Assembly: GCA_040507575.1 (NCBI GenBank)
Contig: JBEVOM010000150.1
Coordinates: 472-64,471 of the forward strand
DNA from: Ilumatobacteraceae bacterium
GTDB lineage: Bacteria > Actinomycetota > Acidimicrobiia > Acidimicrobiales > Ilumatobacteraceae
Direction of reading: 5' to 3'
Length of the DNA stretch: 64,000 nucleotides
The notes beneath the pieces are model-generated. The model searched no databases, was not told the origin of the DNA, and was given only the letters and a program-made list of their open reading frames with translations. The position numbers and the translations under genes were made by a program. Below are positions 1-61,673 of this stretch, piece by piece; position 1 is the first letter of the stretch; each line of letters opens with the position of its first letter.

Positions 1-1677
<1,677 letters not shown>

Positions 1678-1711
1678 CTGCGCCCACGACCATGTTCGCG
1701 ACGGTGTCAGG

Positions 1712-3658: not shown

Positions 3659-3750
3659 CGCGGCCCAGGCGCATGAACGGCCGACGTGCGCGAAGCTGCG
3701 GGTCGGTGGTGGATCAGCACGAGCTCCATCGAACGAGTAGATAATCACCG

Positions 3751-5187
3751 ATGAGCCGTCGCACGAAGATCGTCGCCACGCTCGGCCCGGCGAGCTCGGG
3801 TCCGGCGCGCCTGGAGGCGATGGTGCTGGCCGGCGTCGACGTCGTGCGCCTCAACCTCAGCCACGGCTCGATCGGCGAGCACCTGGAGCGGCTGGCGCTG
3901 GTCCGTGACGTCGCCCGGAAGGTCGGCAAGCCCGTCGGCGTGCTGGCCGACCTGCCCGGCCCGAAGATCCGGGCCGGCGCGTTCCCGGACGGTGGCGTCG
4001 ACCTGGCGCCGGGCGAGACCGTCCGGCTCGTCGCCGGCGGCGACGCCAGCTCCCGCGATGTCATCTCCGTCGCCTACCCGACCCTGCTCGAGGACGTGGA
4101 CCCTGGCGATCGCATCGTGATCGGTGACGGCGGCATCGCCATGCGGACCATCGCCGTCACGGCCGACGCCGTGCTGGCTGAGGTCGAGAACGGCGGACGG
4201 ACGCAGGGGCGGCCCGGCATCCACCTCTCGTGCGAACGCCTGCAGATGTACGCCCCGACCGACGAGGACCTCGTGCTCGCCGAGGCCGTGGCGACGGCCG
4301 GCGTCGAGTACGTCGCGCTGTCGTTCGTCCGGCGCGCCGCGGACGTCGTGAAGCTGCGGGCCGTGGTCGGCGACCGGGCGAAGATCGTCGCCAAGATCGA
4401 GACGTATGCGGCCATCGGCGAGCTCCGGTCGATCACCCAGGTCGCCGATGCCGTCATGGTCGCCCGGGGTGACCTCGGCATCGATTGTCCGCTGGAGGAC
4501 GTTCCGCATCTGCAGAAGGAGATCATCCGCCACTGCGTCGCCGTTGGCGTCCCGGTGATCACGGCGACCCAGATGTTGGAGTCGATGATCGACGCCCCGG
4601 CGCCAACGCGGGCCGAGGTCAGCGACGTCGCCAACGCGGTGTTCGACGGCACCGACGCCGTCATGCTCTCGGGTGAGACGGCGATCGGCCACGACCCGGT
4701 CAACGTCGTCGAGACGATGGCCCGCATCGCCGGACGCGCCGAGACCGAGGCCAGCTACCGGCAGTGGGCCGAGCGGCTCGGGCGGGATCAGCGGGAGTGG
4801 CCGATCGAGGACACGTCGGACCGCATCACCGCGGCCGTCACCCACGCCGCATGGCAGGCCGCCCACGACGCCGGGACGACCGCGATCCTGTGCTGCACGC
4901 GCAGCGGTCGCACGGCCCGGGCGATGGCCCGGTTCCGACCGAGCTGCCGCCTCGTCGGCCTGTCGCCCGACCAGCGCACCGTCGACGCGCTCACGCTGTC
5001 GTGGGGCGTGGAATCGGTGCAGGTCGAGGAGTACCGCTCGAGCGACGAGATGGTCTGGTTCGCCGTCGAGACGGCGTTGCAGCACGGCCTCGTCGAGCAC
5101 GGTGACGTCGTGCTGGTGCTCGCCGGCGCCCCGGACCGCCACAGCGGCACGGCGACGGACGTCATGCGCGTCGTGCGCGTGCAGTGA
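3751..5187 (+). CDS. pyk: pyruvate kinase
   Basis: MSRRTKIVATLGPAS N-terminus, MVARGDLG and LSGETA motifs, full-length 478 aa. Confidence 0.95.
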   Translation: MSRRTKIVATLGPASSGPARLEAMVLAGVDVVRLNLSHGSIGEHLERLALVRDVARKVGKPVGVLADLPGPKIRAGAFPDGGVDLAPGETVRLVAGGDASSRDVISVAYPTLLEDVDPGDRIVIGDGGIAMRTIAVTADAVLAEVENGGRTQGRPGIHLSCERLQMYAPTDEDLVLAEAVATAGVEYVALSFVRRAADVVKLRAVVGDRAKIVAKIETYAAIGELRSITQVADAVMVARGDLGIDCPLEDVPHLQKEIIRHCVAVGVPVITATQMLESMIDAPAPTRAEVSDVANAVFDGTDAVMLSGETAIGHDPVNVVETMARIAGRAETEASYRQWAERLGRDQREWPIEDTSDRITAAVTHAAWQAAHDAGTTAILCCTRSGRTARAMARFRPSCRLVGLSPDQRTVDALTLSWGVESVQVEEYRSSDEMVWFAVETALQHGLVEHGDVVLVLAGAPDRHSGTATDVMRVVRVQ

Positions 5188-5957
5188 CCGGCCGCGACAC
5201 CGCGCCGATCTGGTCGGAGGAGAAGGGCCCGCACGGCGCACCGATCGTGGTGCTCGTGCACGGCTCGATGGACCGCTCGGCCGGGTTGCTGCGCCTGAGC
5301 CGGAGGCTCGACCGCACGTGCCGGGTGCTGCGCTACGACCGGCGCGGGTACGGGCGGTCGTCACCCCACGCAGGACCGTTCACGATGACCGAGCAGGTAG
5401 CGGACCTCGACGGTCTCGTCGCCGGGCGGCGGGTCGTCGTGTTCGGACACAGCTACGGCGGCAACGTCGCGCTCGCGTACGCGGCCCGCCGCCCCGACCT
5501 GGTGCGGGCGGTCGGCGTGTACGAGGCACCGTTGTCGTGGATGGACTGGTGGCCCGGTTCGACGGCTGGCGGTTCGGGCCCGGCCACCGACGGCGAGCCG
5601 GCCGACGCCGCCGAGCGGTTCATGCGCCGGATGGTCGGCGATGCGATGTGGGAGCGCCTACCGGCCGGGACGCGCGCCGCTCGGCGGGCCGAAGGACCGG
5701 CGATGATCGAGGAGCTGACCGACGTCGGTCGGCACGCGCCGTGGACACCAGGGTCGATCGTGCAGCACGTCGTCGCGATGCACGGGACGCGGGGCGCCCG
5801 TCACCACATCGCAGCGACGGTGCTGCTCGGCACGATCCTGCCCGACTGCCAGGTCGTCACCATCGACGGGGCGCGCCACGACGGGCCGAACTCCCACGCC
5901 GACGCGGTGGCCGCAGAGATCGGTTCGCTCGTCACTCGAGCGGCGACGACACCGTGA
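5184..5957 (+). CDS. alpha/beta-fold hydrolase
   Basis: VVLVHGS oxyanion region and GHSYGG nucleophile elbow. GTGA overlap with the pyk stop. Confidence 0.8.
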   Translation: MTGRDTAPIWSEEKGPHGAPIVVLVHGSMDRSAGLLRLSRRLDRTCRVLRYDRRGYGRSSPHAGPFTMTEQVADLDGLVAGRRVVVFGHSYGGNVALAYAARRPDLVRAVGVYEAPLSWMDWWPGSTAGGSGPATDGEPADAAERFMRRMVGDAMWERLPAGTRAARRAEGPAMIEELTDVGRHAPWTPGSIVQHVVAMHGTRGARHHIAATVLLGTILPDCQVVTIDGARHDGPNSHADAVAAEIGSLVTRAATTP

Positions 5958-6261
5958 CCTCGCGTCCGAAGAAGGTGCACGTGGTGTCGTCCACGGCGCC
6001 GGCCGCCAACGTCGTGCGCACCCGGTCGGCGCAGTCCTGCACCGAGCTGCGCTGGGTCCAGACCAACCCGACCAGCACGGCGAGCACCGCGACCGTGAGC
6101 AGCTTGGCCGCGATCGCCTTGATCAGCCACGCCATCAGCACCGCCAGCACGACCGCACCGGCGACGACGGCCACGGCCCAGTCGCGGGCGTTCTCGAACG
6201 TCAGGGCGACCACGCCGGGGACCGTAGGTGAACCTGGCCCGGCGCTCGCGTACCCTCCCAT
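5932..6261 (-). CDS. small predicted membrane protein (two hydrophobic helices)
   Basis: C-terminal 109 codons of a long shadow ORF. The hydrophobic stretch WAVAVVAGAVVLAVLMAWLIKAIAAKLLTVAVLAVLVGLVW reads as genuine coding. Divergent from the DUF3151 gene, and its 3' end overlaps the hydrolase by 26 nt. Confidence 0.4.
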   Translation of the reverse strand: MGGYASAGPGSPTVPGVVALTFENARDWAVAVVAGAVVLAVLMAWLIKAIAAKLLTVAVLAVLVGLVWTQRSSVQDCADRVRTTLAAGAVDDTTCTFFGREVTVSSPLE

Positions 6262-6264
6262 CCC

Positions 6265-6699
6265 ATGAGCGACCAACGTCCCGTCACGATGTCCCAGGGG
6301 CTCCCGTCGACCGTCCTGCCGGCGCCCGATGCCGACGCCGCGGCGGCACTGGAGGCCGCACTGGCCCTCGACGGCGCCGCCCGCCGCGACGCCGTCGCCG
6401 CGGTCGTCGCCCAGCGGCCGCGGTTCCTCCAAGCCTGGGCCGAGCTCGGCGATCTCGGGCGCGACCCGATCGAGCGCTACGCCTACTACCGCGTCGGCTA
6501 CCACCGGGGGCTCGACGCCCTGCGGGCCAACGGGTGGCGCGGCTCTGGATACGTGCGGTGGTCGGCGCCGACCAACACCGGGTTCCTCCGCTCGCTCGCC
6601 GGCCTCGGGGCGATGGCGACCGAGATCGGCGAGGCCGACGAGGCCGAGCGCATCGCCGTGTTCCTGGTGCAGCTCGACCCCGACACGCCGGTGCGCTGA
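6265..6699 (+). CDS. DUF3151-like conserved actinobacterial protein
   Basis: YAYYRVGYHRGLDALRANGWRGSGYVRW and NTGFLRSL segments match my recollection of DUF3151. Confidence 0.7.
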   Translation: MSDQRPVTMSQGLPSTVLPAPDADAAAALEAALALDGAARRDAVAAVVAQRPRFLQAWAELGDLGRDPIERYAYYRVGYHRGLDALRANGWRGSGYVRWSAPTNTGFLRSLAGLGAMATEIGEADEAERIAVFLVQLDPDTPVR

Positions 6700-6706
6700 G
6701 GCTCGG

Positions 6707-7267
6707 GTGACGGCGGGGGCGGTGCTCACCGGCGGGTCCAGCCGGCGGATGGGGACCGACAAGGCGTTCGTCGAGGTCGATGGTGTCCCGATGGCCGAGC
6801 GCGTCGCTGCTGCCCTGTCCGGAGGTGGCTGTTCGCCGGTGTCGTACGTCGGCGGGGACGTCGCGCTCCTCGCCCGCTTCGGCCGGACCGTGCACGCCGA
6901 CCGGTTCCCCGGGGCCGGCCCGCTGGGCGGGGTGCTGACGGCGTTGGCGGCGCTCGGTGACGTCCTGGTCGCCGCGTGCGACCTGCCGCTCCTCGACGCG
7001 GCGACGGTGACGCGGTTGCTCGTCGCCGCGCGCGCTGCGCCCGACGCGCCCGTGATCGTCGCCCGCACCGATCGTGTGGAGCCGGCCCTCGCGGTCTGGC
7101 GCACCACCGCCGTCCCGGCGATCGAGGCGCACTGGGCGGCCGGCGGGCGGGCACTCCACGGCGCACTGGACGTGCTCGACGTCGTGACGGTGCCGGTCGA
7201 AGTCGGGGCGATGCGCAACGTGAACACGCTCGCCGAGCTCTCGGCGACTCCTCGCCACCCGACCTGA
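6707..7267 (+). CDS. mobA: molybdenum cofactor guanylyltransferase
   Basis: LTGGSSRRMGTDKA nucleotide-binding motif and AACDLP motif. GTG at 6707 is in frame within the longer 6329..7267 ORF, whose upstream part is Arg/Pro-rich shadow. Confidence 0.8.
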   Translation: MTAGAVLTGGSSRRMGTDKAFVEVDGVPMAERVAAALSGGGCSPVSYVGGDVALLARFGRTVHADRFPGAGPLGGVLTALAALGDVLVAACDLPLLDAATVTRLLVAARAAPDAPVIVARTDRVEPALAVWRTTAVPAIEAHWAAGGRALHGALDVLDVVTVPVEVGAMRNVNTLAELSATPRHPT

Positions 7268-49755: not shown

Positions 49756-49793
49756 GTTGCATGAACATGCGATCTATCGTATGATCATGCGAT
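49756..49793. promoter_or_regulatory. tandem ARG boxes (ArgR operator) overlapping the argC start
   Basis: GTTGCATGAACATGCGAT (49756-49773), a 2-bp spacer, then ATCGTATGATCATGCGAT (49776-49793). Both fit the TGCAT-RWWY-ATGC pattern recalled for actinobacterial ARG boxes. Centres are 20 bp apart. AT-rich dip; argR is encoded in the same cluster. Confidence 0.65.
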
Positions 49794-50853
49794 GGTCGCT
49801 CACGCCCCGGTCAGGGCCGGCATCATCGGGGCGTCCGGTTTCACCGGGGCCGAGCTGCTGCGGCTGGTGGCCGGCCACCCCGACGTCGACGTCGTCGTCG
49901 CCACCGCTGGCACCCAGGCCGGACAGCCGGTCGGGGAGCTGTACCCGTCGCTGGCCGCGGCGTACCCCGACCTCGGACTGAGCGCCTTCGACGCCGACGC
50001 CGACGCCGGCGCCGACATCGACGTGGTTGACGGTCTCGACCTGCTGTTCCTCGGGCTCCCCCACCAGGCGTCGATGGCGTTGGCGCCCCGACTCGTCGGG
50101 CGCGTCGGCTGCGTCGTCGATCTCTCGGCGGCGTTCCGCCTCAAGGACGCGTCGTCGTACCCCGCCTGGTACGGCTTCGAGCACGACCAGCCCGCACTGC
50201 TGGCCGAGGCGGTCTACGGGCTGCCCGAGCGACACCGGGCCGACCTGGTGGGAGCGCGTCTCGTGGCCACACCCGGCTGCTACGTCACGGCGGCGACGCT
50301 GGCGCTCGCCCCGCTGCTCGACGCCGGGCTGGTCGATCCGGTCGGTGTCATCGTCGACGCGGCGAGCGGCGTGTCCGGCGCCGGGCGGGGGGCGACGGCA
50401 TCGAACGCGTTCTGCACCGTGGACGAGAACTTCGTCGCGTACGGGCTGCTCGACCACCGCCACACCCCCGAGATCGAGCAGAACCTCGGTGCCCAGGTGC
50501 TCTTCACGCCGCACCTCGCGCCGATGAACCGCGGCATCCTCGCCACCTGCTACGCCCGGCCGGTCGCCGGCGCCGACCTCTCGACGGCGCTGCTCGGTGA
50601 CGTGCTGCGGGCGGCCTACGCGACCGAGCCGTTCGTCGTCGCCATCGACGGATCCCCGTCCACGAAGGCGACGCTCGGTTCCAACGCCGCCCACGTCAAC
50701 GCCCGCTTCGACGAGCGCACGGGATACGTCGTCGCGCTCTGTGCGATCGACAACCTCACGAAGGGGGCATCGGGCGGCGCGCTCCAATCGGCGAACATCG
50801 CGCTCGGGCTGGATGAGCGGGCCGGGCTGCCGCTCGTCGGGGTCGCTCCGTGA
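49792..50853 (+). CDS. argC: N-acetyl-gamma-glutamyl-phosphate reductase
   Basis: GIIGASGFTGAELLRL N-terminus and the ATPGCY active-site Cys motif. Confidence 0.95.
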   Translation: MVAHAPVRAGIIGASGFTGAELLRLVAGHPDVDVVVATAGTQAGQPVGELYPSLAAAYPDLGLSAFDADADAGADIDVVDGLDLLFLGLPHQASMALAPRLVGRVGCVVDLSAAFRLKDASSYPAWYGFEHDQPALLAEAVYGLPERHRADLVGARLVATPGCYVTAATLALAPLLDAGLVDPVGVIVDAASGVSGAGRGATASNAFCTVDENFVAYGLLDHRHTPEIEQNLGAQVLFTPHLAPMNRGILATCYARPVAGADLSTALLGDVLRAAYATEPFVVAIDGSPSTKATLGSNAAHVNARFDERTGYVVALCAIDNLTKGASGGALQSANIALGLDERAGLPLVGVAP

Positions 50854-51761
50854 CCCCGCTGGCCCGGGGCGTCGTCGAGGCGCTCGCCGATCTGCCGGAG
50901 CAGGCGATCGCCCACGTGCTGGTCGAAGCGCTGCCGTACATCCGGCGCTTCGCCGGCAAGACGATGGTCGTGAAGTACGGCGGCAACGCGTTGGCCGGCA
51001 CGTCGGACCATGATGCGCTGGATCTGTTCGCGCAGGACATCGTGCTGATGCGGCTCGTGGGCATCCGTCCCGTGGTCGTCCATGGTGGCGGTCCGCAGAT
51101 CAGCGCCCTGATGTCGCGCCTCGGCAAGACGACGGAGTTCCGCGACGGGCTGCGGGTGACCGACGCCGAGACCGTCGACATCGCCCGCATGGTCCTCATC
51201 GGGCAGGTCAACCCCCAGCTCGTCACCGCGCTCAACCTGCACGGCAACTACGCGGTCGGCGTGAGTGGCGAGGACGCCGGGCTCATCCGGGCCGTTGCCC
51301 GCGACCCGGGGCTCGGGTTCGTCGGCGATGTCGCGGCGATCAACCCGGCGATCCTCGACGGCCTGCTGGCGAACGAGTTCATCCCCGTCGTCGCGACGAT
51401 CGGGACCGACGAACGAGGCCAGGCCTACAACATCAACGCCGACGTCGTCGCCGGCGCGATCGCCGAGGCGGTGGGCGCCGAGAAGCTGATCTACCTCACC
51501 GACATCGAAGGGCTGCGACGTGATGTCGGCGATGCCAGCAGCTTGATCCGCCAGACGACGCCCGACGACCTCGACGCCCTGGTCGCCGACGGGACGATCG
51601 CCGGCGGGATGATCCCGAAGGTGTCGAGCTGCGTGCGGGCCGTGCGTGGCGGCGTCGAGCGGGCCCACATCCTCGACGGCCGCATCGCCCACGTGCTGCT
51701 CGTCGAGCTGTTCACCGATGCCGGCATCGGCACCATGGTCCAGGAGCGCACCACCTCATGA
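50850..51761 (+). CDS. argB: acetylglutamate kinase
   Basis: VVKYGGNAL, VVHGGGPQI and NINAD motifs. GTGA overlap with argC. Confidence 0.95.
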   Translation: MTPLARGVVEALADLPEQAIAHVLVEALPYIRRFAGKTMVVKYGGNALAGTSDHDALDLFAQDIVLMRLVGIRPVVVHGGGPQISALMSRLGKTTEFRDGLRVTDAETVDIARMVLIGQVNPQLVTALNLHGNYAVGVSGEDAGLIRAVARDPGLGFVGDVAAINPAILDGLLANEFIPVVATIGTDERGQAYNINADVVAGAIAEAVGAEKLIYLTDIEGLRRDVGDASSLIRQTTPDDLDALVADGTIAGGMIPKVSSCVRAVRGGVERAHILDGRIAHVLLVELFTDAGIGTMVQERTTS

Positions 51762-52948
51762 GCCCGTCCGCCCACGCCTTCGACACCGGCGGCCTCGACG
51801 CCTGCCCGTTCATGCCGGTGTTCGGGCCGCCGCAGCTGATGTTCGTGAAGGGTCGCGGCACCGAGCTGTGGGACAGCAACGGGAAGCGCTACCTCGACTT
51901 CCTCGGCGGGCTGGCCGTCATCGGCCTCGGCCACGCCAACCCGGTCGTCGCGGCCGCCATCGCCGAGCAGGCGGGGGAGCTGTTGCACGTCAGCAACCTG
52001 TTCGCCAACCCGGTCGCCACCCGGGCCGCCGTCGAGGTCGACCGGCTGCTGGCCGAGGCGACGGGCGACGCCGGCCAGGTGTTCTTCACGAACTCCGGCG
52101 CCGAGGCGATCGAGTGCGCCCTGAAGCTGGCTCGCAAGCACGGCGGCCGCAACCGCCATGTCGTCGTCAGCGCGCTCGGCAGCTTCCACGGCCGCACCCT
52201 GGCGGCCCTGGCCGCCACCGGCCAGCCGACCAAGCACGAGCCGTTCCAGCCCATGCCCGAGGGCTTCCACCACGTCGCGTGGGGTGACGTCGGCGCGATG
52301 GCCAAGGCCGTCGACGCCTCGGTCGCCGCAGTCCTGATCGAACCGGTGCAGGGGGAGGGAGGCGTCAACATGGCCCCTGACGGCTACCTCCGCGCGATCC
52401 GCGAGATCTGTGACGACACCGGTGCGCTGATGATGATCGACGAGATCCAGACCGGGTTCGGGCGCACGGGGCGCTGGTTCGCGTTCGAGCACGACGGCGT
52501 GCGTCCCGACGTCGTCACGCTGGCCAAGGCGATGGGCAACGGGATGCCGGTCGGCGCGTGCTGGGCCCGTCGTGAGATCGCGGCCGTGTTCGAGCCCGGC
52601 GACCACGGCAGCACCTACAGCGGCACGGCGATCGCCACCGCGGCGGTGAACGCCGTGATCGACGAGATGCGCCGCCTCGGTGCGCCCGCCCTGGCCGCCG
52701 ACCAGGGCGCCAAGCTGGCTGCGGGACTCGCCGCGCTGCCCGGTGTGACAGCGGTCCGCGGTCGCGGGCTCCTGCTCGCAGCCGAGCTGGAGGCCGGTGG
52801 GGCACCTGCCGTGCAGCGTCGTCTGCTCGACGCCGGGCTGGTCACGAACGCAGTGACCCCCACGGCCCTGCGCCTGGCCCCACCGCTGACGGTCAGCGAC
52901 GAGGAGATCGTCGAGGCTGTGGGCCTCATCGCGGCGGCGCTGTCGTGA
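51758..52948 (+). CDS. argD: acetylornithine aminotransferase
   Basis: Class III aminotransferase motifs (NSGAEA, MMIDEIQTGFGRTG, TLAKAMGNG with the PLP Lys). ATGA overlap with argB. Confidence 0.95.
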   Translation: MSPSAHAFDTGGLDACPFMPVFGPPQLMFVKGRGTELWDSNGKRYLDFLGGLAVIGLGHANPVVAAAIAEQAGELLHVSNLFANPVATRAAVEVDRLLAEATGDAGQVFFTNSGAEAIECALKLARKHGGRNRHVVVSALGSFHGRTLAALAATGQPTKHEPFQPMPEGFHHVAWGDVGAMAKAVDASVAAVLIEPVQGEGGVNMAPDGYLRAIREICDDTGALMMIDEIQTGFGRTGRWFAFEHDGVRPDVVTLAKAMGNGMPVGACWARREIAAVFEPGDHGSTYSGTAIATAAVNAVIDEMRRLGAPALAADQGAKLAAGLAALPGVTAVRGRGLLLAAELEAGGAPAVQRRLLDAGLVTNAVTPTALRLAPPLTVSDEEIVEAVGLIAAALS

Positions 52949-53856
52949 CGCGCCACTTCCTGGATGTCACCGATCTGACGCCGGTCGAGCTGCGCGAGGT
53001 GCTCGACCTCGCGGTCGTCGCCCCGGCCGACCTCGGGCGGCCGCTCGCCGGCACCGGCGTGGCGCTGCTGTTCGAGAAGCAGTCGCTGCGCACCCGGCAC
53101 TCGATGGAGATGGCGGTCACCCAGCTCGGTGGGCATCCCGTCTACACCCGCAACGACGAGATCGGCATCGACGTGCGTGAGCCGATCGAGGACGTCGTGC
53201 AGATCTTGCAGGGGTACCACGGCGTGATCGCCGCCCGCGTCTTCTCCCACCGGGTGCTGGAGCGGATGGTCGAGGTGGCCACCGTGCCGATCGTCAACAT
53301 GCTGTCGGACCACTCGCACCCGTTGCAGGCGCTGGCCGATGCGCTGACGATGGAGGAGGTCCTCGGGCCCCTCGCCGGCCGCACCATCGCTTGGGTCGGC
53401 GACTACAACAACGTCGCCCGCTCGCTCGGCGAGGTCGGCGCGATGCTCGGCGCCGACGTGCGCTTCGCCTGCCCGCACGGCTACGAGGCCGATGCCGCCG
53501 AGCTCGAGCGGCTGCAGCTCCTCGGGACGAGCAGCGTCACCCAGACGACCCGACCGGACGAGGCGGTGGCCGGCGCCGACGCCGTGCATTCGGACACGTG
53601 GGTCTCGATGGGACAGGAGGCCGATCAGGCCGCTCGCAAGCAGGCGTTCGAAGGCTTCACGGTCGATGATGCCCTGATGGCGCTCGCCGCGCCCGACGCC
53701 GTGTTCATGCACTGCCTCCCCGCCTACCGGGGGCTCGAGGTGACCGCCGATGTGATCGACGGACCGCGCAGCGTCGTCTACCGGCAGGGTCACAACCGCC
53801 TGCACTCGGCCCGCGGGCTCCTCGCGTTCCTGGCCCGAGCGGACCCCCCGTCGTGA
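52945..53856 (+). CDS. argF: ornithine carbamoyltransferase
   Basis: FEKQSLRTR, HPLQALAD, DTWVSMG and HCLPA motifs. GTGA overlap with argD. Confidence 0.95.
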   Translation: MTRHFLDVTDLTPVELREVLDLAVVAPADLGRPLAGTGVALLFEKQSLRTRHSMEMAVTQLGGHPVYTRNDEIGIDVREPIEDVVQILQGYHGVIAARVFSHRVLERMVEVATVPIVNMLSDHSHPLQALADALTMEEVLGPLAGRTIAWVGDYNNVARSLGEVGAMLGADVRFACPHGYEADAAELERLQLLGTSSVTQTTRPDEAVAGADAVHSDTWVSMGQEADQAARKQAFEGFTVDDALMALAAPDAVFMHCLPAYRGLEVTADVIDGPRSVVYRQGHNRLHSARGLLAFLARADPPS

Positions 53857-53917
53857 GGACCCGGGCCCGAACCCTCGCGCCCCCCACCATCTGGGCGCGC
53901 ACCGTCTCGACGACCAT

Positions 53918-53961
53918 CCTGGGCGCGGAGGGTCTCGGATCCGGGACCCTCCGCGCCCAGG
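53918..53961. other. long perfect inverted repeat (17-bp arms) in the argF-argR spacer
   Basis: CCTGGGCGCGGAGGGTC (53918-53934) and GACCCTCCGCGCCCAGG (53945-53961), with a 10-nt centre containing the CGGATCCG palindrome. No U-tract follows. Confidence 0.6.
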
Positions 53962-53986
53962 TGCCAGCAGACGCGGCTGGCGCGGC

Positions 53987-54469
53987 GTGAGCGTCAAGCA
54001 GCAGCGCCAGCAGGCGATCGCCCGGCTCATCGGCCAGCATCGGGTGGCCAACCAGCCCCAGCTGCTCGACCTCCTGGCCGGCGAGCGGATCACCGCCACG
54101 CAGGCAACCGTGTCGCGTGACCTCGAGGAGCTCGGCGCCATCAAGGTGCGGGTGCCAGGCGGTCACTCGGTGTACGCGCTCCCCGAACTGGAGTCCGACC
54201 GCCTCGCGCCGTTCGACCAGTTGCGCCGCGTGCTCGGCGAGTGGGTCGGCGACGTCGCGTCGTCGGCCAACATCGTCGTGCTGCGCACGCCGCCGGGCTG
54301 TGCCCACGTCGTCGCGTCGGCGCTCGACCGCAGTGCCGTCGACGGTCTCCTCGGCACGGTCGCCGGCGACGACACCGTGTTGTGCGTCGCCGGTCTCGGC
54401 ACGACGGGTGACGCGTTGGCCGACCGCTTCCGCCGCCTTGCCGGCCTCGCCGCGGGGGACGACTCGTGA
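53987..54469 (+). CDS. argR: arginine repressor
   Basis: Winged-helix N-domain (ATQATVSRDLEELG) and a C-terminal oligomerisation/arginine-binding domain (GTVAGDDTVL). Confidence 0.9.
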   Translation: MSVKQQRQQAIARLIGQHRVANQPQLLDLLAGERITATQATVSRDLEELGAIKVRVPGGHSVYALPELESDRLAPFDQLRRVLGEWVGDVASSANIVVLRTPPGCAHVVASALDRSAVDGLLGTVAGDDTVLCVAGLGTTGDALADRFRRLAGLAAGDDS

Positions 54470-55878
54470 ACCGGGACGACGAACGTCCCACCCCGACCGG
54501 TTCGACGCTGTGGCACGGTCGCTTCGCCGGGGGTCCGGCCGACGCGTTGATGGCGTACACGGTGAGCCTGCCGTTCGACCGGCGCTTGTGGCGTGACGAC
54601 GTCCACGGCTCGCGGGCCCATGTCGGCGGCCTGGCCCGGGCCGGGCTCCTCGACGAGACGGAGCGGGCTGCAGTGCTCGCCGCTCTCGACACGGTCGAGA
54701 GCGAGATGGCCGACGGGACGTTCGCGTTCGCGGCCAGCGACGAGGACATCCACACCGCGGTCGAGCGTCGCGTCACCGAGCTCGCCGGGAGCGCCGGCGC
54801 CAAGCTGCACACCGCCCGGAGCCGCAACGACCAGGTGGCCACCGATCTGCGGCTCTGGTGCAAGCGGGAGCTGATCGGCGTCGGTCGGCTCGTGGCCGCT
54901 CTGGAGACCGTGCTGCTCTCCCGGGCAGTCGAAGCCGGCGACACGTACCTCCCCGGCTACACCCACCTCCAACGGGCCCAACCCGTCCTGCTCGCCCACC
55001 ACCTCCTGGCCCACGCGTGGGCGTTGTCGCGCGACGTCGACCGCCTCGTGGCGACGGTCGACCGGCTGGACGTGTCACCGCTCGGCGCCGGAGCCCTTGC
55101 CGGGACGTCCCTCCCGATCGATCCGGCGTCGACGGCAGAGGCGCTCGGTTTCGCCGACGTGTTCGCGAACTCGCTCGACGCGGTCAGTGATCGGGACTTC
55201 GTCGCCGAGGCGTTGTTCGACCTCGCGCTGGTCGGCATCCACCTCGCCCGCCTCGGCGAGGAGTGGGTGCTGTGGACGACGGAGGAGTTCGGCTTCGCCC
55301 GCCTCGACGACGCGTACGCCACCGGGTCGTCGATGCTGCCGCAGAAGAAGAACCCCGACATCGCCGAACTGGCCCGCGGCAAGGCCGGGCGGCTGATCGG
55401 CAACCTCACGGGACTGTTGGCCACGCTGAAGGGGCTGCCGTTGGCCTACAACCGCGACCTCCAGGAGGACAAGGAGCCGCTGTTCGACGCCGTCGACCAG
55501 GTCAGCCTGGCCCTCGTCGCGATCGCCGGGATGATCGACACGGCGACGTTCGTGCCTCAGCGGATGGCGGCGGCGGCCGACGCCGAGACCGTCGCCGCCA
55601 CCGATCTGGCCGAGTGGCTCGTCGCCGACGGCACACCGTTCCGCGACGCCCACGCCATCGTCGGGGAGCTCGTGCGTCGCCACCTCGCCGGCGAGGGCAC
55701 GCTGCGCGATCTGGTCGAGGCCGACGCCCGACTCGGTCCTGACGCCGCGGCCCTCGTCGCGCCGGGCGTCGGCGTGCACCGCCGACGCTCACCAGGCGGT
55801 GCCGGTCCGGAGCCGGTCGCCGTGCAGTTCACCCGCTTCGAGGAGTCGCTGCGCCGGCAGCACGAGATGCTCGGGTGA
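54466..55878 (+). CDS. argH: argininosuccinate lyase
   Basis: LWHGRF N-terminus, TARSRNDQV, YTHLQRAQP and GSSMLPQKKNPD signature. GTGA overlap with argR. Confidence 0.95.
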   Translation: MNRDDERPTPTGSTLWHGRFAGGPADALMAYTVSLPFDRRLWRDDVHGSRAHVGGLARAGLLDETERAAVLAALDTVESEMADGTFAFAASDEDIHTAVERRVTELAGSAGAKLHTARSRNDQVATDLRLWCKRELIGVGRLVAALETVLLSRAVEAGDTYLPGYTHLQRAQPVLLAHHLLAHAWALSRDVDRLVATVDRLDVSPLGAGALAGTSLPIDPASTAEALGFADVFANSLDAVSDRDFVAEALFDLALVGIHLARLGEEWVLWTTEEFGFARLDDAYATGSSMLPQKKNPDIAELARGKAGRLIGNLTGLLATLKGLPLAYNRDLQEDKEPLFDAVDQVSLALVAIAGMIDTATFVPQRMAAAADAETVAATDLAEWLVADGTPFRDAHAIVGELVRRHLAGEGTLRDLVEADARLGPDAAALVAPGVGVHRRRSPGGAGPEPVAVQFTRFEESLRRQHEMLG

Positions 55879-55914: not shown

Positions 55915-56476
55915 GAGCGTGCTGGGCCGCAGCTTCTTCGCCCGTGACGCCACCGTCGTCGCACCCGAGCTGCTCGGCAAGGTGCTCGTCGCCGGCGTCT
56001 GTGCCGGCCGGATCGTCGAGGTCGAGGCGTACCGGAGCGATGACCCGGCCAGCCACACGTTCCGCGGTCCGACGGCTCGCAACGCGGTCATGTTCGGTCC
56101 GGCTGGTCACCTGTACGTCTACTTCACGTACGGCATGCACCACTGCGCCAACGTCGTCACCGGCGAGCTCGGCGATGGGCAGGCGGTGCTGCTCCGGGCG
56201 CTGCACCCCCTGGACGGGATCGCGGTGATGCGGCGCCGCCGCGGCGGGAAGCCGGATGCCCGGCTCACCGACGGCCCGGGCAAGCTGTGCCAGGCGCTGG
56301 GCATCGACCGCACCGTCGACGGCATCGACCTGTGCGCCGGCGGAGGCGACGTCACGATCGTGGACGACGGCACGCCGCCACCCGTCGAGCCACGCATCAC
56401 CGCGCGCATCGGCATCAGCGTCGCCACCGACACGCCGTGGCGCTGGCTGGCGCCACCGCCACCGAACCGGGTCTGA
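55907..56476 (+). CDS. mpg: DNA-3-methyladenine glycosylase (Mpg/AAG family)
   Basis: [17 protein letters not shown] and [18 protein letters not shown] motifs. Confidence 0.9.
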
Positions 56477-56603
56477 CGTCGGCCCCGGGTGGCCCCGGAT
56501 CACTGGGAGCTCGGGTGTCCGACTGCACCGTTGTCCGGGCGCGCCTGGTCCCGATGTCGAGACCCTTCACGCCCAGATCGACAGCGTGCCGCGTCGCACC
56601 ACG

Positions 56604-56807
56604 TCAGCCGATGCCGTCGACCGGCACGTTGCTCGCTGCCTCGACGGTGCGCACGGCGTCCTCGGTGGCGTCGTCGAAGAACCCGGACACCGCCACGACC
56701 TGACCCTGCTCGCCGAGCAGTCGCTGGAGCACCTCGACGACCAGCCCTTCGTCGCCGACCCGCACCGTCGGCCACGTCAGGGTCGGCACCGTCGGCGTCC
56801 ACGGCAC
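56604..56807 (-). CDS. small peptidoglycan-binding-domain (PG_binding_1-like) protein; possibly the 3' part of a frameshifted gene starting at 56877
   Basis: VRVGDEGLVVEVLQRLLG...VSGFFDDATEDAVRTVE...VPVDGI follows the G-x-G-x-x-V-x-x-LQ ... DG-x-FG-x-x-T-x-x-AV pattern. GTG at 56807. No signal peptide. Confidence 0.55.
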   Translation of the reverse strand: MPWTPTVPTLTWPTVRVGDEGLVVEVLQRLLGEQGQVVAVSGFFDDATEDAVRTVEAASNVPVDGIG

Positions 56808-56964
56808 GCATGTCGTAGTCGTCGTCGGCCCGAGGTGTGAACGTCACCCGGAAGTCGTCGTAGACGTAGGTGGCCATCCCCACATGAGAGGATCGACGAC
56901 GCAGCGCGCTGATGCAAGCACCGCCCGAGGCACGGGTCGCAGCGGTCAGCAAGGGAGTGCGGCG

Positions 56965-58374
56965 ATGGCCAAGGAGCCGATGGGTGACGTGATCGTGCTG
57001 CTGCCGGGGATCCTCGGCAGTGTGCTGGAGCGCGACGGCGAGGAGGTCTGGGCGCCGAGCCCCGGCGCCATCGGCCGGGCGCTGTGGTCGCTCGGCCGGA
57101 GCGTGACCACGCTGGCGCTCGACGGCGACCCCTGGGAGACCGACGACCTCGGCGACGGCGTCGTCGCGACCCGTCTGATGCCCGGCATCCACATCGTCCC
57201 CGGACTCTGGGGCATCGACATCTACAGCGGCATCTCGGCGATGATCCGCGAGCACTTCGACGTCGTGCCCGGCGAGACGTACGTCGAGTTCGCCTACGAC
57301 TGGCGGCGCGACAACCGCGTCGCCGCCCGACGGTTGCGGCGCCTGGTCGACGAGAAGCTGCATGCTCGCCGCTCGGTGAACCCGGGGGCCAAGGTCATCC
57401 TCATCGGTCACTCGATGGGCGGGCTCGTGGCGCGTTGGTTCCTGGAGTGCATGGACGGCTGGCGCGACACCCGCATGCTGATCACGTTCGGCACGCCCCA
57501 CCGCGGATCGGTGAACGCCGTCGACTTCCTGGTCAACGGTCTGGTCAAGAAGGTCGGGCCCCTCAAGGTCGCCGACCTCACGACACTGCTGCGCTCGTTG
57601 ACCTCCGTGTACCAGCTCCTACCGATCTACCCGTGCATCGACATGGGCGACGGCTACCGACGCGTCGCCGAGATGGCAGACGAGCTCCCGGGGGTCGACG
57701 CCAGCCGGGCGACGAGCGCGCTCGAGGACTTCCACCGTGCGATCGAAGCCGGCGTGGGTCGTCGTGAGCCCGACGCGTACACCATCCACTCGGTGGTCGG
57801 GATCACGCAGGGCACCAAGCAGTCTGCCCGATGGGACGGCTCACACCTGGTCGTCGAGCGGAGCCACGGCGGCGAGGACATGGGTGGTGACGGGACGGTG
57901 CCACGGGTCTCGGCGACACCACTCGAGACCGACGACGCACCGTCGTACCAACCGATGTACTCCTCCGAGCAACACGGGTCGCTGCAGACCGCGGAGGCGG
58001 TGCGGACCCAGCTCCTCGGCATCCTCACCGCCCGTCCACGCCCCGGGTTCCGCGCCGCCCAGGGCATCCGTCTCGACGCCGACGACGTGCTGGCCGCAGG
58101 CGAGAGCCTGGTCGTCGGGGCCTGGCCGGACCTCCCCAACCTCACGCTGCAGGCGAGCGTGGTCGACGTCGCGACCGGGCGCCCGATCGGCCCGCCTTCC
58201 ACGATGCGGCGCGACGCCGACGACGTCCACCACGCCGAGCTGGCACCGCTCCCGACCGGGGACTACCGGCTGCGCGTGGAAGCGGTCGGGGACAGCGCGG
58301 GCCTCGCCGACCCCGTCCACGGCCTGGTGTGCGTCCTCGATGATCGCCCGCCCGACGACGAGCCTGCGCCGTGA
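56965..58374 (+). CDS. LCAT/PGAP1-type alpha/beta-hydrolase lipase with C-terminal non-catalytic extension, no signal peptide
   Basis: VLLPGILGS N-terminal motif, GHSMGG elbow (Ser codon 57412-57414), GGDGTVP (Asp codon 57889-57891) and EQHGS (His codon 57973-57975). ATG 56965 with GGGAG 8 nt upstream is preferred over ATG 56884. Confidence 0.8.
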   Translation: MAKEPMGDVIVLLPGILGSVLERDGEEVWAPSPGAIGRALWSLGRSVTTLALDGDPWETDDLGDGVVATRLMPGIHIVPGLWGIDIYSGISAMIREHFDVVPGETYVEFAYDWRRDNRVAARRLRRLVDEKLHARRSVNPGAKVILIGHSMGGLVARWFLECMDGWRDTRMLITFGTPHRGSVNAVDFLVNGLVKKVGPLKVADLTTLLRSLTSVYQLLPIYPCIDMGDGYRRVAEMADELPGVDASRATSALEDFHRAIEAGVGRREPDAYTIHSVVGITQGTKQSARWDGSHLVVERSHGGEDMGGDGTVPRVSATPLETDDAPSYQPMYSSEQHGSLQTAEAVRTQLLGILTARPRPGFRAAQGIRLDADDVLAAGESLVVGAWPDLPNLTLQASVVDVATGRPIGPPSTMRRDADDVHHAELAPLPTGDYRLRVEAVGDSAGLADPVHGLVCVLDDRPPDDEPAP

Positions 58375-58399
58375 CGCCGGTGCGTGACCCGAGCGCAGG

Positions 58400-60475
58400 G
58401 TGACGACCTACGCCCTCCTCGTCGGCATCGATGCCTACGACCCGCCGATGCCGCCCCTCTTCGGATGCCGCAACGACATCGAGGCGCTCGCCGAACTGCT
58501 GCGCAACCGCAGCGGTCGGCCGCTGGACCTGCGGCTGCTGCTCGACGCGGAGGCCACCCGCGACGCCGTCGTCGAGGCGTTCCGAGCCCACCTCGGCCAG
58601 GCCGGACCGGACGACGTCGCGCTGTTCGCATATGCGGGACACGGCAGCGAGGAGCCGGCCCCGCCGGAGGTCGCCGACGTCGAGCCGACGGGCCGGATCC
58701 AGACGCTGATCCTCCATGACTGCAACCGCCGCGTCGGCGGGAAGTTGCGCCGGGCGCTCGCCGACAAGGAGCTGGCGCTGCTGCTCGCCGAGGTGTCGCA
58801 GAGCGGAGCCCACGTCGTCGTCATCCTCGACTGCTGCCACGCGGGTGGTGGGACCCGCGATCCGTTCGTGCGGACCCGCGGCTGGGTGCCCGACGCCGAC
58901 GTCGCCGACCCGTCGCTCCGTGAGCTGGTCGAGGCGATGGGCACCGCTCGCGCCTCGAACGAGTTCATGCCCGGCGCGATGGACATGTGGCGCGCTCCGC
59001 GTCCGCCCCACGTCGCGATCGCCGCCTGTCGGTCGTACGAGACGGCGAAGGAGCATCCCGTCGGTCGCGTCACCCGCGGCGTGTTCTCGATGGCCCTGGT
59101 CGAGTCGCTCCAAGCGCTCGTCCACCAGCCGACGTACCGATCGCTGCTGGCGGCGGTGCGGGCCCGCGTCGAGCGGTCCACCGATCAGCAACGGCCCGAG
59201 TTGTTCCCCCTCGATGTCGGCGGCGCGGGCGACGGGCTCGTCCTCGACGGCACGATCGTCCCGGTCCCGCCGTCGTTCACGATGCGCCGCAGCACGGACG
59301 GTCGGGACGACGGCTGGGAGGTCGACGCCGGGCTGGTGCACGGTCTGCGGGACGCGGTCGGCGACGACGCGTTCGTGCTGGCCTGCACCGCGCCCGACGG
59401 GGCCGCGGCCGGCACCGCGGTCGTCGTCGCGGTCGACGTCGGGCGATCCCGCGTCGACCCTGTCGGGTGGACTCCGCTCGACGTCGCCTATCGGGCGGTC
59501 GTCGCCGACGTCCCGCTGGCGCCGGCGGAGATCCGCTTCGACGACGGCGTGGGCGACGCGACCCGCGATCTCGTCATGGGCGCCGTCCGGACGGCCGGGC
59601 CGGGCGGCGGCCCGTCGCCCTTCGTGCGCATCGCGAGCGGGATCGGCGACGGCGACGAGGTCGGGCGGGCGGGCGCGCCCGCGCCGCTGATCCTGCGAGT
59701 CGCCGAGCCCGATGCCGGTCGCGCCACGATCGCCCGCGCCGACGGACGTCCGGTCACCGCGGCCATCGACGATGTGACGGCGGTCGGTGGCGGGGCCCGC
59801 CTGCTCGTGGCGCGGCTCGAACACGTCTCGCGGTGGGAGCAGATCCGTCGCCTCGCCGACCACCCCGCTCCGCTCGCCGACGCGGTCGAGCTGCTCGTGT
59901 ACGCGGCCGGCGACGACGAGGCCCGGCGACCCGAGTCACGGGCGCCGCTCGCTCCAGACGCCGGCTACGAGCTCGCGTACCGTCCCGGCTCGGGCGGATC
60001 GTGGGTCGCGCCCCGCGTGTTCCTGGAGCTGCGCAACCGCCATGGGCGTGACCTCTACGTCGCCGTCCTCGACCTCACCGACCGCTTCCGGTGCCACGCC
60101 GTGCTGCCGACGGAGCTGGTCACCGCCGGGCACGACCTCGCGCTGTGGTCCGGGGCCCCGATCCCCGTGGAGCTGCCGAGCGGACGTGCGGTCGTCTCCG
60201 GTTCCTCGGCGACGGACTGGTTGTTGGTCGTCGTCAGCGCGGTCGACTTCGACGCCACCACGTTCGACCTCGGCGCGCTCGACGACCCGGTGAGACGGTC
60301 GGCGGCCGGGCGGTCGATGCCCCGCAACGCGATCGAGCGGCTGGCCACCAAGGCCCTCCGGCGCGACGTCGGGGCTCCCGTGCTGTCCGGTGACGCGGCG
60401 GGATGGGCGGCGACAGCCGTCGCCGTGGAGGTCCGGGTCCCGGACCAGACCGTCAGTAGCGGCCCTCGACCGTGA
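58400..60475 (+). CDS. caspase-like peptidase C14 domain protein with ~540-aa uncharacterised C-terminal region (DUF4384-like end)
   Basis: YALLVGIDAY start, FAYAGHGS (His codon 58640-58642) and ILDCCHAGG (Cys codon 58835-58837) form the His/Cys dyad. The C-terminal DLYVAVLDLTDRF...LLVVVS segment resembles DUF4384. Starts 25 nt after the lipase stop. Confidence 0.85.
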   Translation: MTTYALLVGIDAYDPPMPPLFGCRNDIEALAELLRNRSGRPLDLRLLLDAEATRDAVVEAFRAHLGQAGPDDVALFAYAGHGSEEPAPPEVADVEPTGRIQTLILHDCNRRVGGKLRRALADKELALLLAEVSQSGAHVVVILDCCHAGGGTRDPFVRTRGWVPDADVADPSLRELVEAMGTARASNEFMPGAMDMWRAPRPPHVAIAACRSYETAKEHPVGRVTRGVFSMALVESLQALVHQPTYRSLLAAVRARVERSTDQQRPELFPLDVGGAGDGLVLDGTIVPVPPSFTMRRSTDGRDDGWEVDAGLVHGLRDAVGDDAFVLACTAPDGAAAGTAVVVAVDVGRSRVDPVGWTPLDVAYRAVVADVPLAPAEIRFDDGVGDATRDLVMGAVRTAGPGGGPSPFVRIASGIGDGDEVGRAGAPAPLILRVAEPDAGRATIARADGRPVTAAIDDVTAVGGGARLLVARLEHVSRWEQIRRLADHPAPLADAVELLVYAAGDDEARRPESRAPLAPDAGYELAYRPGSGGSWVAPRVFLELRNRHGRDLYVAVLDLTDRFRCHAVLPTELVTAGHDLALWSGAPIPVELPSGRAVVSGSSATDWLLVVVSAVDFDATTFDLGALDDPVRRSAAGRSMPRNAIERLATKALRRDVGAPVLSGDAAGWAATAVAVEVRVPDQTVSSGPRP

Positions 60476-61673
60476 CGGTCAGCTTGATCTGGCCGGCCTC
60501 CCAGATCGGGCCGCGGGCATCCTGCAGGCCGAGCCAGCTGACGAGCGTGTCCTGGTCGCTGACCCGCAGGCGGGCGCAGCCATGGCTCGCCGGGGACGTC
60601 GGCACCGAGTTCGCGCCGTGGATGGCCTGGCCGGCATCGAAGTACAGCGGCTTGTACATGTTCCCGTTCAGCGGGTTGTCGGCGGCGACCGGGTAGTCGA
60701 TGCTGTCGTGCCACCCACCGTTGTTGCGGGCAGGGTCGAACCGGAAGACACGGGAGGCCTCCTGGTCCCGGGTCGGGAAGCTGGCCTGGCCGGTCGACGT
60801 GCCGAAGACGTACACGAGCGTCGCGCCGTCGCCCACGAACATGACCTGGCACGTCTGGTCGATCAGCGCCCACTTGCCGGCGGCGATCGGCGCGCCGGCC
60901 GGGATGGGCAGGCCGGAGGCTTGCATCAACGCCGCCTCCTCCATCGATCCGACCTCCATGTCGGTGCGGTTGACCGGCAGGCCGAGTGCGACGCGGGCGG
61001 CGCACAGCTGCTGCTCGGTGAGCCGGCCGGACTGACCGTCGACGCTCAACGCGGCGATCCCGTAGCCCGTGAACAACTCGTTGAGCTTCTGCTGCTGGGC
61101 CTCGACGCCGGAGAACCCGGCCGGTGCCGAGCCGGTCGGCGGCGGCGGCACGACGACCGGGACCGTCGTCGGCGGCGCCGTTGTCGGCGGGACCCGCGGG
61201 CCGCCGTTGACGTCGTCGATGCCGTTGTCGATGCAGATGTCGAGGACGGCGCCGGCGTTGATGACGTTGGGGTCGTCGATGCCGTTCTCCCGCTGGATGC
61301 CGTCGAGCGTGACCGCCGGGTCGCCGATGCGGGCGACGATGGCGTTCAACGAGTCTCCCGGAGCAACCTCGAGCGTGCAGGTGACCGCGGCGACGGTGGT
61401 CGTGGTCTCAGGCGTCGACGTGGTGGTGGTGGTCGTCGACTCGGCCGTCGTCGTCGGGGCGACGGTCGTCGCGGTCGTCGGCGGCGCGGTGGTCGTCGGC
61501 GGCGCGGTGGTCGACGCCGCCGTGCTCGGTGGATCCGTCGCGGCCACGGGATCGGTCGTCGGTTCGATCGTGACCGGCGCGACCGTCGTCGGTGAGGCGT
61601 CGTCGTCGGCCGACGAGCAGGCGGCGATGGCCACCAGGCCGGCCGCGAAGGCGACGACGAGAGGTGTGCGCAC
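60453..61673 (-). CDS. L,D-transpeptidase lipoprotein with LysM-like and PG-binding-like modules
   Basis: Lipobox-like LVAIAAC, a Thr/Pro-rich linker, a LysM-like segment (VAPGDSLNAIVARIG), and the YkuD catalytic motif IHG...SHGCARL. GTG at 61673. The 3' end overlaps the caspase gene by 23 nt. Confidence 0.85.
   Translation of the reverse strand: MRTPLVVAFAAGLVAIAACSSADDDASPTTVAPVTIEPTTDPVAATDPPSTAASTTAPPTTTAPPTTATTVAPTTTAESTTTTTTSTPETTTTVAAVTCTLEVAPGDSLNAIVARIGDPAVTLDGIQRENGIDDPNVINAGAVLDICIDNGIDDVNGGPRVPPTTAPPTTVPVVVPPPPTGSAPAGFSGVEAQQQKLNELFTGYGIAALSVDGQSGRLTEQQLCAARVALGLPVNRTDMEVGSMEEAALMQASGLPIPAGAPIAAGKWALIDQTCQVMFVGDGATLVYVFGTSTGQASFPTRDQEASRVFRFDPARNNGGWHDSIDYPVAADNPLNGNMYKPLYFDAGQAIHGANSVPTSPASHGCARLRVSDQDTLVSWLGLQDARGPIWEAGQIKLTVTVEGRY

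Follow-up and report, generated by a model that had tools for sequence, protein, structure and literature searches.

Caspase-associated hydrolases and the Ilumatobacteraceae locus

Alpha/beta-hydrolases encoded beside caspase-like proteases are known from prokaryotic conflict systems. In the vWA-MoxR (VMAP) systems, an alpha/beta-hydrolase neighbour always accompanies the caspase-superfamily domain (Kaur, Burroughs, Iyer & Aravind, eLife 2020, PMC7159879); such hydrolases have been assigned to membrane-lipid hydrolysis, and the systems have been tied to apoptosis-like processes besides immunity (Kaur et al. 2021, PMC8195603). More recently, alpha/beta-hydrolases were placed among the most abundant protease-associated effectors, in modules that are widespread in Actinobacteria and Pseudomonadota and whose proteases carry fused WD40 or STAND sensors (Evans et al., bioRxiv Nov 2025, PMC12642450). 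In the same work, LcCaspase of Lysobacter capsici AZ78 cut LcHydrolase after Arg73 and Arg117, both in Arg-Gly motifs, and co-expressed N- and C-terminal LcHydrolase fragments killed E. coli. Here we analyse a lipase gene and a caspase-like protease gene that lie side by side in a 64,000-nucleotide stretch of an Ilumatobacteraceae bacterium (contig JBEVOM010000150.1, positions 472 to 64,471; G+C 72%), hereafter the window. The most fitting interpretation is that the locus represents the known alpha/beta-hydrolase-caspase class in minimal form, and possibly a distinct LCAT-type branch of it. It comprises the following elements.

56951..56957, + strand: Shine-Dalgarno-like AAGGGAG, read from the sequence, 7 nucleotides 5' of the lipase ATG
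56965..58374, + strand: gene 1, a 469-residue cytoplasmic LCAT/PGAP1-type alpha/beta-hydrolase, predicted (phospho)lipase effector or zymogen
58375..58399, + strand: intergenic spacer of 25 nucleotides, which fits an operon
58400..60475, + strand: gene 2, a 691-residue metacaspase-like C14 protease with a C-terminal beta-sandwich module

Both open reading frames agree with an earlier sequence-only reading of the window, which had described two co-directional genes 25 nucleotides apart. We set the lipase start at 56965 because 17 full-length homologues open with M-AKxPMGD at this ATG and the AAGGGAG motif agrees with it; the homologues give no support to an in-frame ATG further 5', at 56884. 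The stop codon of the lipase is complete at 58374 and translation of the caspase starts from a GTG at 58400, while in relatives the gap between the two genes ranges from a 4-nucleotide overlap up to 61 nucleotides, with 67 nucleotides in locus L002. A scan of positions 56300-60800 found no sigma-70-like promoter or intrinsic terminator.

The pair has much in common with the modules of Kaur et al. and Evans et al.: an alpha/beta-hydrolase with an intact triad adjoins a His-Cys caspase-superfamily protease on the same strand, the pairing is conserved across distant taxa and includes fusions, the hydrolase is lipase-like, the protease carries extra domains and is expected to be Arg-specific, and relatives associate with WD40/beta-transducin, STAND and TCAD proteins. 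Unlike those modules, the window protease carries a beta-sandwich module rather than WD40 or STAND, and the locus sits in the core chromosome. The hydrolase is also set apart from LcHydrolase by the published description of the latter, since it has 469 residues and a beta-sandwich tail where LcHydrolase has ~295 residues, and no Arg-Gly site pair was recognised in it. A DUF7379-domain search for LcHydrolase-like proteins returned mostly metagenome proteins and a few named ones of cyanobacterial origin, with no match from Lysobacter, and the stand-alone DUF7379 members of ~290 residues lacked a pair of Arg-Gly motifs at positions ~73 and ~117. Nor does the pair form a vWA-MoxR (VMAP) ternary system: MoxR AAA+ and vWA genes were absent around it, as they were from the lipase-CHAT loci L005, L009, L014 and L020, and TCAD7 and TCAD2 domains occur in the partners of relatives. 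The sequence-only reading had stated that it knew of no described system with this two-gene architecture, a claim that is out of date. The mechanism it proposed is essentially the published one; the pairing was reported in 2020 (PMC7159879), and biochemical work on one example followed in 2025 (PMC12642450).

On balance, we favour the view that the two genes of the locus form a self-contained protease-effector suicide module. Gene 2 would encode an Arg/Lys-specific metacaspase-like protease, held latent by a C-terminal module of ~400 residues that would also perceive the trigger, be it a component of a phage or damage to the cell. The activated protease would then cut the gene 1 product, a putative cytoplasmic LCAT/LPLA2-like serine (phospho)lipase zymogen, with the best candidate site lying after Phe362-Arg363 and before the beta-sandwich tail. 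Cleavage would lift autoinhibition, and the freed lipase would degrade membrane lipids from inside, so that the cell is killed or arrested. Taken separately, activation of the lipase by proteolytic cleavage is probable, judging by analogy with the published pair, and the chances that the role is one of defence or programmed death are evenly poised.

Coupling of lipase and protease across genomes

We scanned one genome per species and obtained 30 loci in which a lipase-family protein is present at full length, drawn from at least seven phyla, with hosts that include Actinomycetota, Chloroflexota, Cyanobacteria, Planctomycetota and the Alpha- and Betaproteobacteria (Pseudomonadota). A C14 or CHAT protease adjoined the lipase or lay one gene away in 22 of the 30, and most of the remaining eight were cut off by contig ends. 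The partner was a C14 protease in some loci and a CHAT protease in others, upstream in some and downstream in others. By comparison, only 7 of 50 loci with weaker alpha/beta-hydrolase matches had a caspase-fold protease (Fisher's exact test, p=1.3e-7), and these seven consisted of five lipase-CHAT fusions, one split fusion (L048) and one locus with separate CHAT genes nearby (L059). Among close relatives, the lipase was followed by the long caspase in all ten examined, and their surroundings were unrelated save for one that shared the arg-operon/MPG synteny of the window. Divergence of the two proteins was correlated (r=0.85 over 36 locus pairs), with the lipase evolving more slowly (mean identity 62%, versus 41% for the protease).

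Fusions were found in both directions. Single open reading frames with an N-terminal LCAT-like lipase and a C-terminal CHAT domain occur in Proteobacteria and Nitrospirales (L058 6885-10574, L064 7689-10499, L066 7545-9986, L069 7245-10508 and L077 7485-10628). In a second subfamily of ~1,070-1,300 residues (~1,150), a C14 domain and the same beta-sandwich module as in the window protease are joined to a C-terminal DUF7379/PGAP1-type hydrolase, with examples in Actinoplanes and on plasmids of Deinococcus, Rhizobium and Acaryochloris. Its members are listed here.

L085 8408-11638: C14-module-hydrolase fusion
L091-L093 4986-~8500: C14-module-hydrolase fusions
P0254, P0256, P0310, P0321, P0343, P0344, P0382: C14-module-hydrolase fusions

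Because of the census across phyla, the ten relatives, the fusions in both directions and the correlated divergence, we consider chance adjacency excluded, leaving only a negligible probability that unrelated genes merely came to lie together in one genome. The sequence-only reading had suggested looking for adjacency in other genomes, and it proved to be far beyond chance. The two genes are very probably functionally coupled, as that reading had also proposed, and the neighbourhood, fusion and co-divergence evidence for this is strong and agrees with the published related pair (PMC12642450, PMC7159879).

Several loci depart from the usual arrangement. L048 was initially a candidate for a short hydrolase with a small caspase, which we rejected; it is a split lipase-CHAT fusion (1166-4584) in which the lipase is broken by a stop and the CHAT frame opens with the lipase Asp and His motifs, which could reflect either a frameshift or a genuine split. 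In Actinoplanes aureus, a fused C14-hydrolase directly follows an LCAT-type lipase, giving two hydrolases per protease. In L007 (2589-4651) and L024 (3431-10624), the lipase has no caspase-fold neighbour and is followed by a related protein, with a STAND NTPase nearby; the follower has 295 residues and no Pfam match in L007, and 400 residues with a weak transglutaminase-like match and TCAD2 in L024, so that a different cysteine-protease fold may replace the caspase in these two loci. An S8 subtilisin-like peptidase gene lies convergent and just downstream of the lipase in L003 (2273-4096, - strand), and in the same arrangement downstream of the lipase-CHAT pair in L089 (9286-11139, - strand) on a Bradyrhizobium conjugative plasmid, a recurrence seen twice only.

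Active sites, appended domains and candidate cleavage sites

The features of the lipase that bear on its predicted activity and control are the following.

57406..57423, + strand: nucleophile elbow GHSMGG, with the Ser150 codon at 57412-57414
57502..57507, + strand: R180-G181 in GTPHRGS, before the cap/lid helices, secondary candidate cleavage site
57889..57891, + strand: catalytic Asp309 (GDGTVP), invariant in homologues
57973..57975, + strand: catalytic His337 (EQHGS), invariant in homologues
58033..58065, + strand: variable linker, residues 357-367, with F362-R363 (58048-58053), primary candidate cleavage site
58066..58371, + strand: C-terminal beta-sandwich tail, residues 368-469, non-catalytic (AlphaFold2 model)

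Profile searches upheld both enzyme assignments of the sequence-only reading, with matches above the Pfam cut-offs to Peptidase_C14 for the protease (below) and, for the lipase, to LCAT (PF02450; 5.8e-15, 55.9 bits versus a cut-off of 21) and PGAP1 (PF07819; 5.2e-9, 36.6 bits versus 24.3), although the lipase covers the LCAT profile only at positions 82-203 of 392. More than 4,400 homologues of the lipase were found. A profile search against the PDB returned a putative lipase (7x2p, 1e-7), lysosomal phospholipase A2 (LPLA2; 4x90, 1e-6) and LCAT (2e-3), all aligning only around the nucleophile elbow (query residues ~100-220). The motifs LLPGILGS, YDWR, GHSMGG and GTPxxGS are present, and Ser150, Asp309 and His337 are unchanged in 114/114 close homologues and each reach at least 90% conservation in an alignment of 41 sequences from across phyla, confirming the intact triad noted earlier. 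No match to the lipase was found in PADLOC.

Hydropathy analysis detected no signal peptide or transmembrane segment in either protein, the top 19-residue values (1.25 and 1.76 for the two proteins) both falling on core strands of the folds; the earlier description of the lipase as unsecreted is therefore sound. In its Pfam matches, motifs and Ser-Asp-His triad the lipase resembles the LCAT, LPLA2 and PGAP1 families, from which it differs in being cytoplasmic, bacterial, equipped with an Ig-like tail and paired with a protease. As a predicted cytoplasmic phospholipase that would act as a membrane-degrading suicide effector, it also resembles the phospholipase effectors (CapV/patatin-like) of cyclic oligonucleotide-based antiphage signalling systems (CBASS) and other lipase effectors in abortive infection, but those are activated by cyclic nucleotides, have a patatin fold and are not gated by proteolysis.

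In the AlphaFold2 model of the lipase, the core is confident and the overall predicted local distance difference test score (pLDDT) is 61. The strands of the tail span residues 368-458 (pLDDT 65-91), with G432, Y434 and V457 conserved in the cross-phylum alignment, and Foldseek matched the tail to Ig-like sandwiches. For the whole model, the top Foldseek match was the propeptide form of the Bacillus lipase BlEst2 (6wpx); the match is weak and would fit the idea of a zymogen without establishing it. For the catalytic domain the Foldseek search was uninformative, the model being poor (pLDDT 61), and a relationship between the lipase tail and the C-terminal module of the caspase was rejected (hhalign probability 0.8%). 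We propose that the tail is an autoinhibitory or docking domain.

Between catalytic domain and tail lies the linker, which is only ~50% identical among the 114 close homologues, yet 113 of them have R or K at position 363. Because a basic residue is kept inside an otherwise variable linker, F362-R363 is the prime candidate cut site. Across phyla, most lipase-family members that are paired with a protease retain an [FY]-R pair. The pair has been lost from L003, L021, L022 and L024, none of which has a caspase-fold neighbour, as well as from two members paired with a CHAT protease. That Arg363 itself is cut, releasing the tail, is nonetheless a doubtful proposal drawn from conservation patterns. 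The secondary candidate, R180-G181, is the only conserved Arg-Gly of the family (R180 93%, G181 at least 90% across phyla) and falls in a low-confidence segment of the model (177-207). Mapping the 44-residue spacing of the LcHydrolase sites onto the lipase gave two equal coincidences, R70/R114 and R136/R180, and we dropped spacing as evidence because both fit equally well.

In bacterial gasdermin systems (Johnson et al., Science 2022), a caspase-like or CHAT protease reportedly removes a C-terminal inhibitory piece of the gasdermin, and the cell dies. The proposed logic here is similar, in that a neighbouring protease would free a membrane-damaging effector from C-terminal inhibition, although the effector is a serine lipase enzyme rather than a pore and the window contains no gasdermin gene. 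Tail release by a single cut would likewise resemble the gasdermin logic and differ from the two-site excision of LcHydrolase. Extending this, we tentatively suggest that tail-bearing LCAT-type hydrolases might form a distinct protease-gated branch, in which a single Phe-Arg cut removes the Ig-like tail and releases a phospholipase A or acyltransferase that would dissolve the membrane from inside the cell, with the beta-sandwich array of the caspase as a new trigger sensor; we hold this to be less likely than the broader mechanism.

Adjacency and fusion give coupling and not direction, and the lipase might instead be left uncut, with the two proteins serving as independent, co-expressed or co-activated effectors, the protease degrading cellular proteins, as reported for Type IV Thoeris caspases and PCaspase, and the lipase attacking lipids. 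This would accord with the lack of a convincing double Arg-Gly motif in the window lipase and with the ability of effector-less caspase-like proteases to defend alone (PMC12642450). However, an unsecreted lipase with an intact triad needs restraint, the basic residue kept in a variable linker looks like a processing site, and the one related pair that was tested shows cleavage-dependent toxicity (PMC12642450). We consider parallel action unlikely and retain cleavage of the lipase by the protease as the probable relationship.

The protease has the following features.

58400..59224, + strand: caspase-fold domain, residues 1-275 (Pfam and invariant columns)
58544-58546, + strand: Asp49 codon, putative S1 residue, conserved column
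58640-58642, + strand: His81 codon, catalytic
58829-58831, + strand: Asp144 codon, conserved, DxCH motif
58835-58837, + strand: Cys146 codon, catalytic
58877-58879, + strand: Arg160 codon, invariant, adjoining a variable loop
59276..60442, + strand: C-terminal module, residues 293-681, with two beta-sandwich domains, an alpha/beta segment and a long helix (AlphaFold2 model)

Residues 4-268 match Pfam Peptidase_C14 (2.6e-20, 73.5 bits versus 21.4), and the protein matches the PADLOC 'caspase' model (1.5e-32). The NCBIfam model caspase_w_EACC1 scored 49.8 bits, below its 140-bit cut-off, and the neighbour is a lipase, not EACC1. The His-Cys dyad is complete, as had been noted from the sequence, with H81 and D144-C145-C146-H147 invariant among 24 homologues. 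The closest solved structures are Geobacter GSU0716 (3bij), the plant metacaspase-4 and -9, trypanosome MCA2 and yeast Yca1. With these metacaspases and orthocaspases (GSU0716, AtMC4, AtMC9, TbMCA2, Yca1) the protein shares the C14 fold, the dyad, the DxCH motif and two Asp residues at S1 positions, but it lacks p10 Ca-binding and an LSD1-type prodomain and has its own beta-sandwich module of ~400 residues. We take Asp49 and Asp144 to be the positions that form the Arg/Lys-specific S1 pocket in metacaspases. Homologues numbered 439, and each of the 120 listed aligns to the query, in most cases over at least 90% of the query length. The most variable loop of the protease is 166-203, with a mean identity of only 28%; at its entry, where the p20-like half gives way to the p10-like half, Arg160 is followed by Gly in the window protein (residues 153-161, 58856-58882) and may be a site of autoprocessing.

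The C-terminal module is modelled well (pLDDT 87.8; predicted template modelling score, 0.84). It was found in only 380 of the 1.84 billion cluster representatives searched, and in most judgeable hits among the 150 matches listed it begins ~270-300 residues in, at the end of the C14 domain. We therefore regard it as private to this protease family rather than as a shuffled sensor, and propose it as the sensor or regulatory part of the protease. The ~540 residues without a recognisable catalytic motif that were described earlier are correct when counted from the catalytic Cys, whereas ~400 non-catalytic residues remain after the domain itself; DUF4384, suggested at the same time, gave no match at E<=0.01.

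LCAT-family enzymes can act as acyltransferases. The order of events could be the reverse, the lipase acting first, by lipidating the protease or recruiting it to the membrane or by making a lipid signal, with the protease as final effector, and the stronger conservation of the lipase would be in keeping with this. However, we know of no precedent for such an order among prokaryotic protease-effector modules, the large sensor-type extra module sits on the protease and not on the lipase, and the published pair runs from protease to hydrolase (PMC12642450). Such a reversal seems very improbable, and the protease is more plausibly the upstream partner.

Genomic context and biological role

The pair is flanked by the arg operon, an MPG glycosylase gene, a gene for a LysM-YkuD protein and DUF2332, in a window that carries the core genes alaS, carB, pheST, pyk, metK and coaBC as well as the arg operon. 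The G+C content at third codon positions (GC3) of the cassette is 0.91, which is host-like, and synteny is shared with L081, whose caspase is 62% identical to that of the window. No STAND, TIR, gasdermin, CBASS or CRISPR genes adjoin the pair. The earlier observation that immune genes are missing beside it therefore holds for the window and fails for the relatives, which often adjoin nSTAND1-WD40, NACHT, SIR2, TCAD or extra CHAT genes. The cassette looks long-resident rather than newly acquired. The caspase gene and the convergent gene for LysM-YkuD (L,D-transpeptidase) share 23 nucleotides at their 3' ends (60453-60475), and no terminator-like structure was detected between them. The arginine cluster (49792-55878) reads argC-argB-argD-argF-argR-argH, an order also seen in L081, with no argJ between argC and argB and no argG before argH.

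In relatives, the neighbours include nSTAND1-WD40, NACHT, SIR2_2 and TCAD7/TCAD2 proteins, Sel1 or TPR arrays and extra CHAT genes, and some relatives lie on large or conjugative plasmids, in one case adjoining AbiE and ImmA/IrrE genes. Immune-type neighbours and plasmids of this kind are a signature of conflict systems. In L005, a fusion of a NACHT NTPase with an FGE-sulfatase (FGS-type) domain (3383-6754, - strand) lies close upstream of the lipase-CHAT pair on the opposite strand; the FGS domain has been described as a diversifying sensor domain in conflict systems (Kaur et al.).

These two sets of neighbours bear on whether the pair has been domesticated in Ilumatobacteraceae for a role outside defence, such as stress-induced death or membrane lipid remodelling or turnover. 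The position between the arg operon/MPG and cell-wall genes, the host-like GC3, the synteny with the relative whose caspase is 62% identical and the lack of flanking immune genes in the window would suit such a role, as would the apoptosis-like link of these systems (PMC8195603), and phage genomes yielded no lipase homologue. Against it, the wider family is patchy across phyla, and its AbiE/ImmA plasmids and its STAND, SIR2 and TCAD neighbours are typical of conflict systems. On this evidence, a domesticated, non-defence function is improbable, about as much so as parallel action of the two enzymes.

Several observations also weigh against the suicide module that we favour. The core location, the GC3 of 0.91 and the conserved synteny fit long-term vertical inheritance in the housekeeping chromosome and not to a defence island. 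The two Arg-Gly sites of LcHydrolase have no clear counterpart, only R180-G181 being conserved here, and the low confidence of the lipase model (pLDDT 61) means that occlusion of the active site by the tail stays a proposal. A Foldseek search of the caspase C-terminal module against the PDB gave generic beta-sandwich matches only and no known sensor fold. The substrate of LcHydrolase is itself not yet identified (PMC12642450). Finally, in L082 (2469-14847; Micromonospora sp. NPDC048898) the long caspase is preceded by a vWA protein and a 443-residue protein that has no Pfam match and no similarity to the lipase, and that may be an alternative effector. This locus is flanked by HSP70/GrpE-like genes and a gene for a 916-residue CHAT protein, an arrangement reminiscent of the DnaK-linked protease modules to which Evans et al. 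refer (PMC12642450).

The gating of death effectors by proteases is coming to be seen as a dominant logic in bacterial immunity, one that echoes caspase-to-gasdermin and caspase-to-CAD signalling in animals. Its least understood branch, for want of a known substrate, is that of the alpha/beta-hydrolases. The concept of a protease-gated hydrolase is not new, and the present locus is a new example rather than a new system. Its LCAT/LPLA2-type signature points to membrane phospholipids as the putative target, and the family adds a candidate cleavage site and a compact two-gene form whose protease has its own uncharacterised regulatory module. The locus also indicates that a cassette of this class can be fixed in the housekeeping chromosome and not in a mobile defence island. 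If release of the lipase by removal of its tail is true, the substrate class of caspase-associated alpha/beta-hydrolase effectors would be identified, and a free-living actinobacterial lineage would have stably retained, within its core genome, a minimal two-gene system that includes its own sensor.

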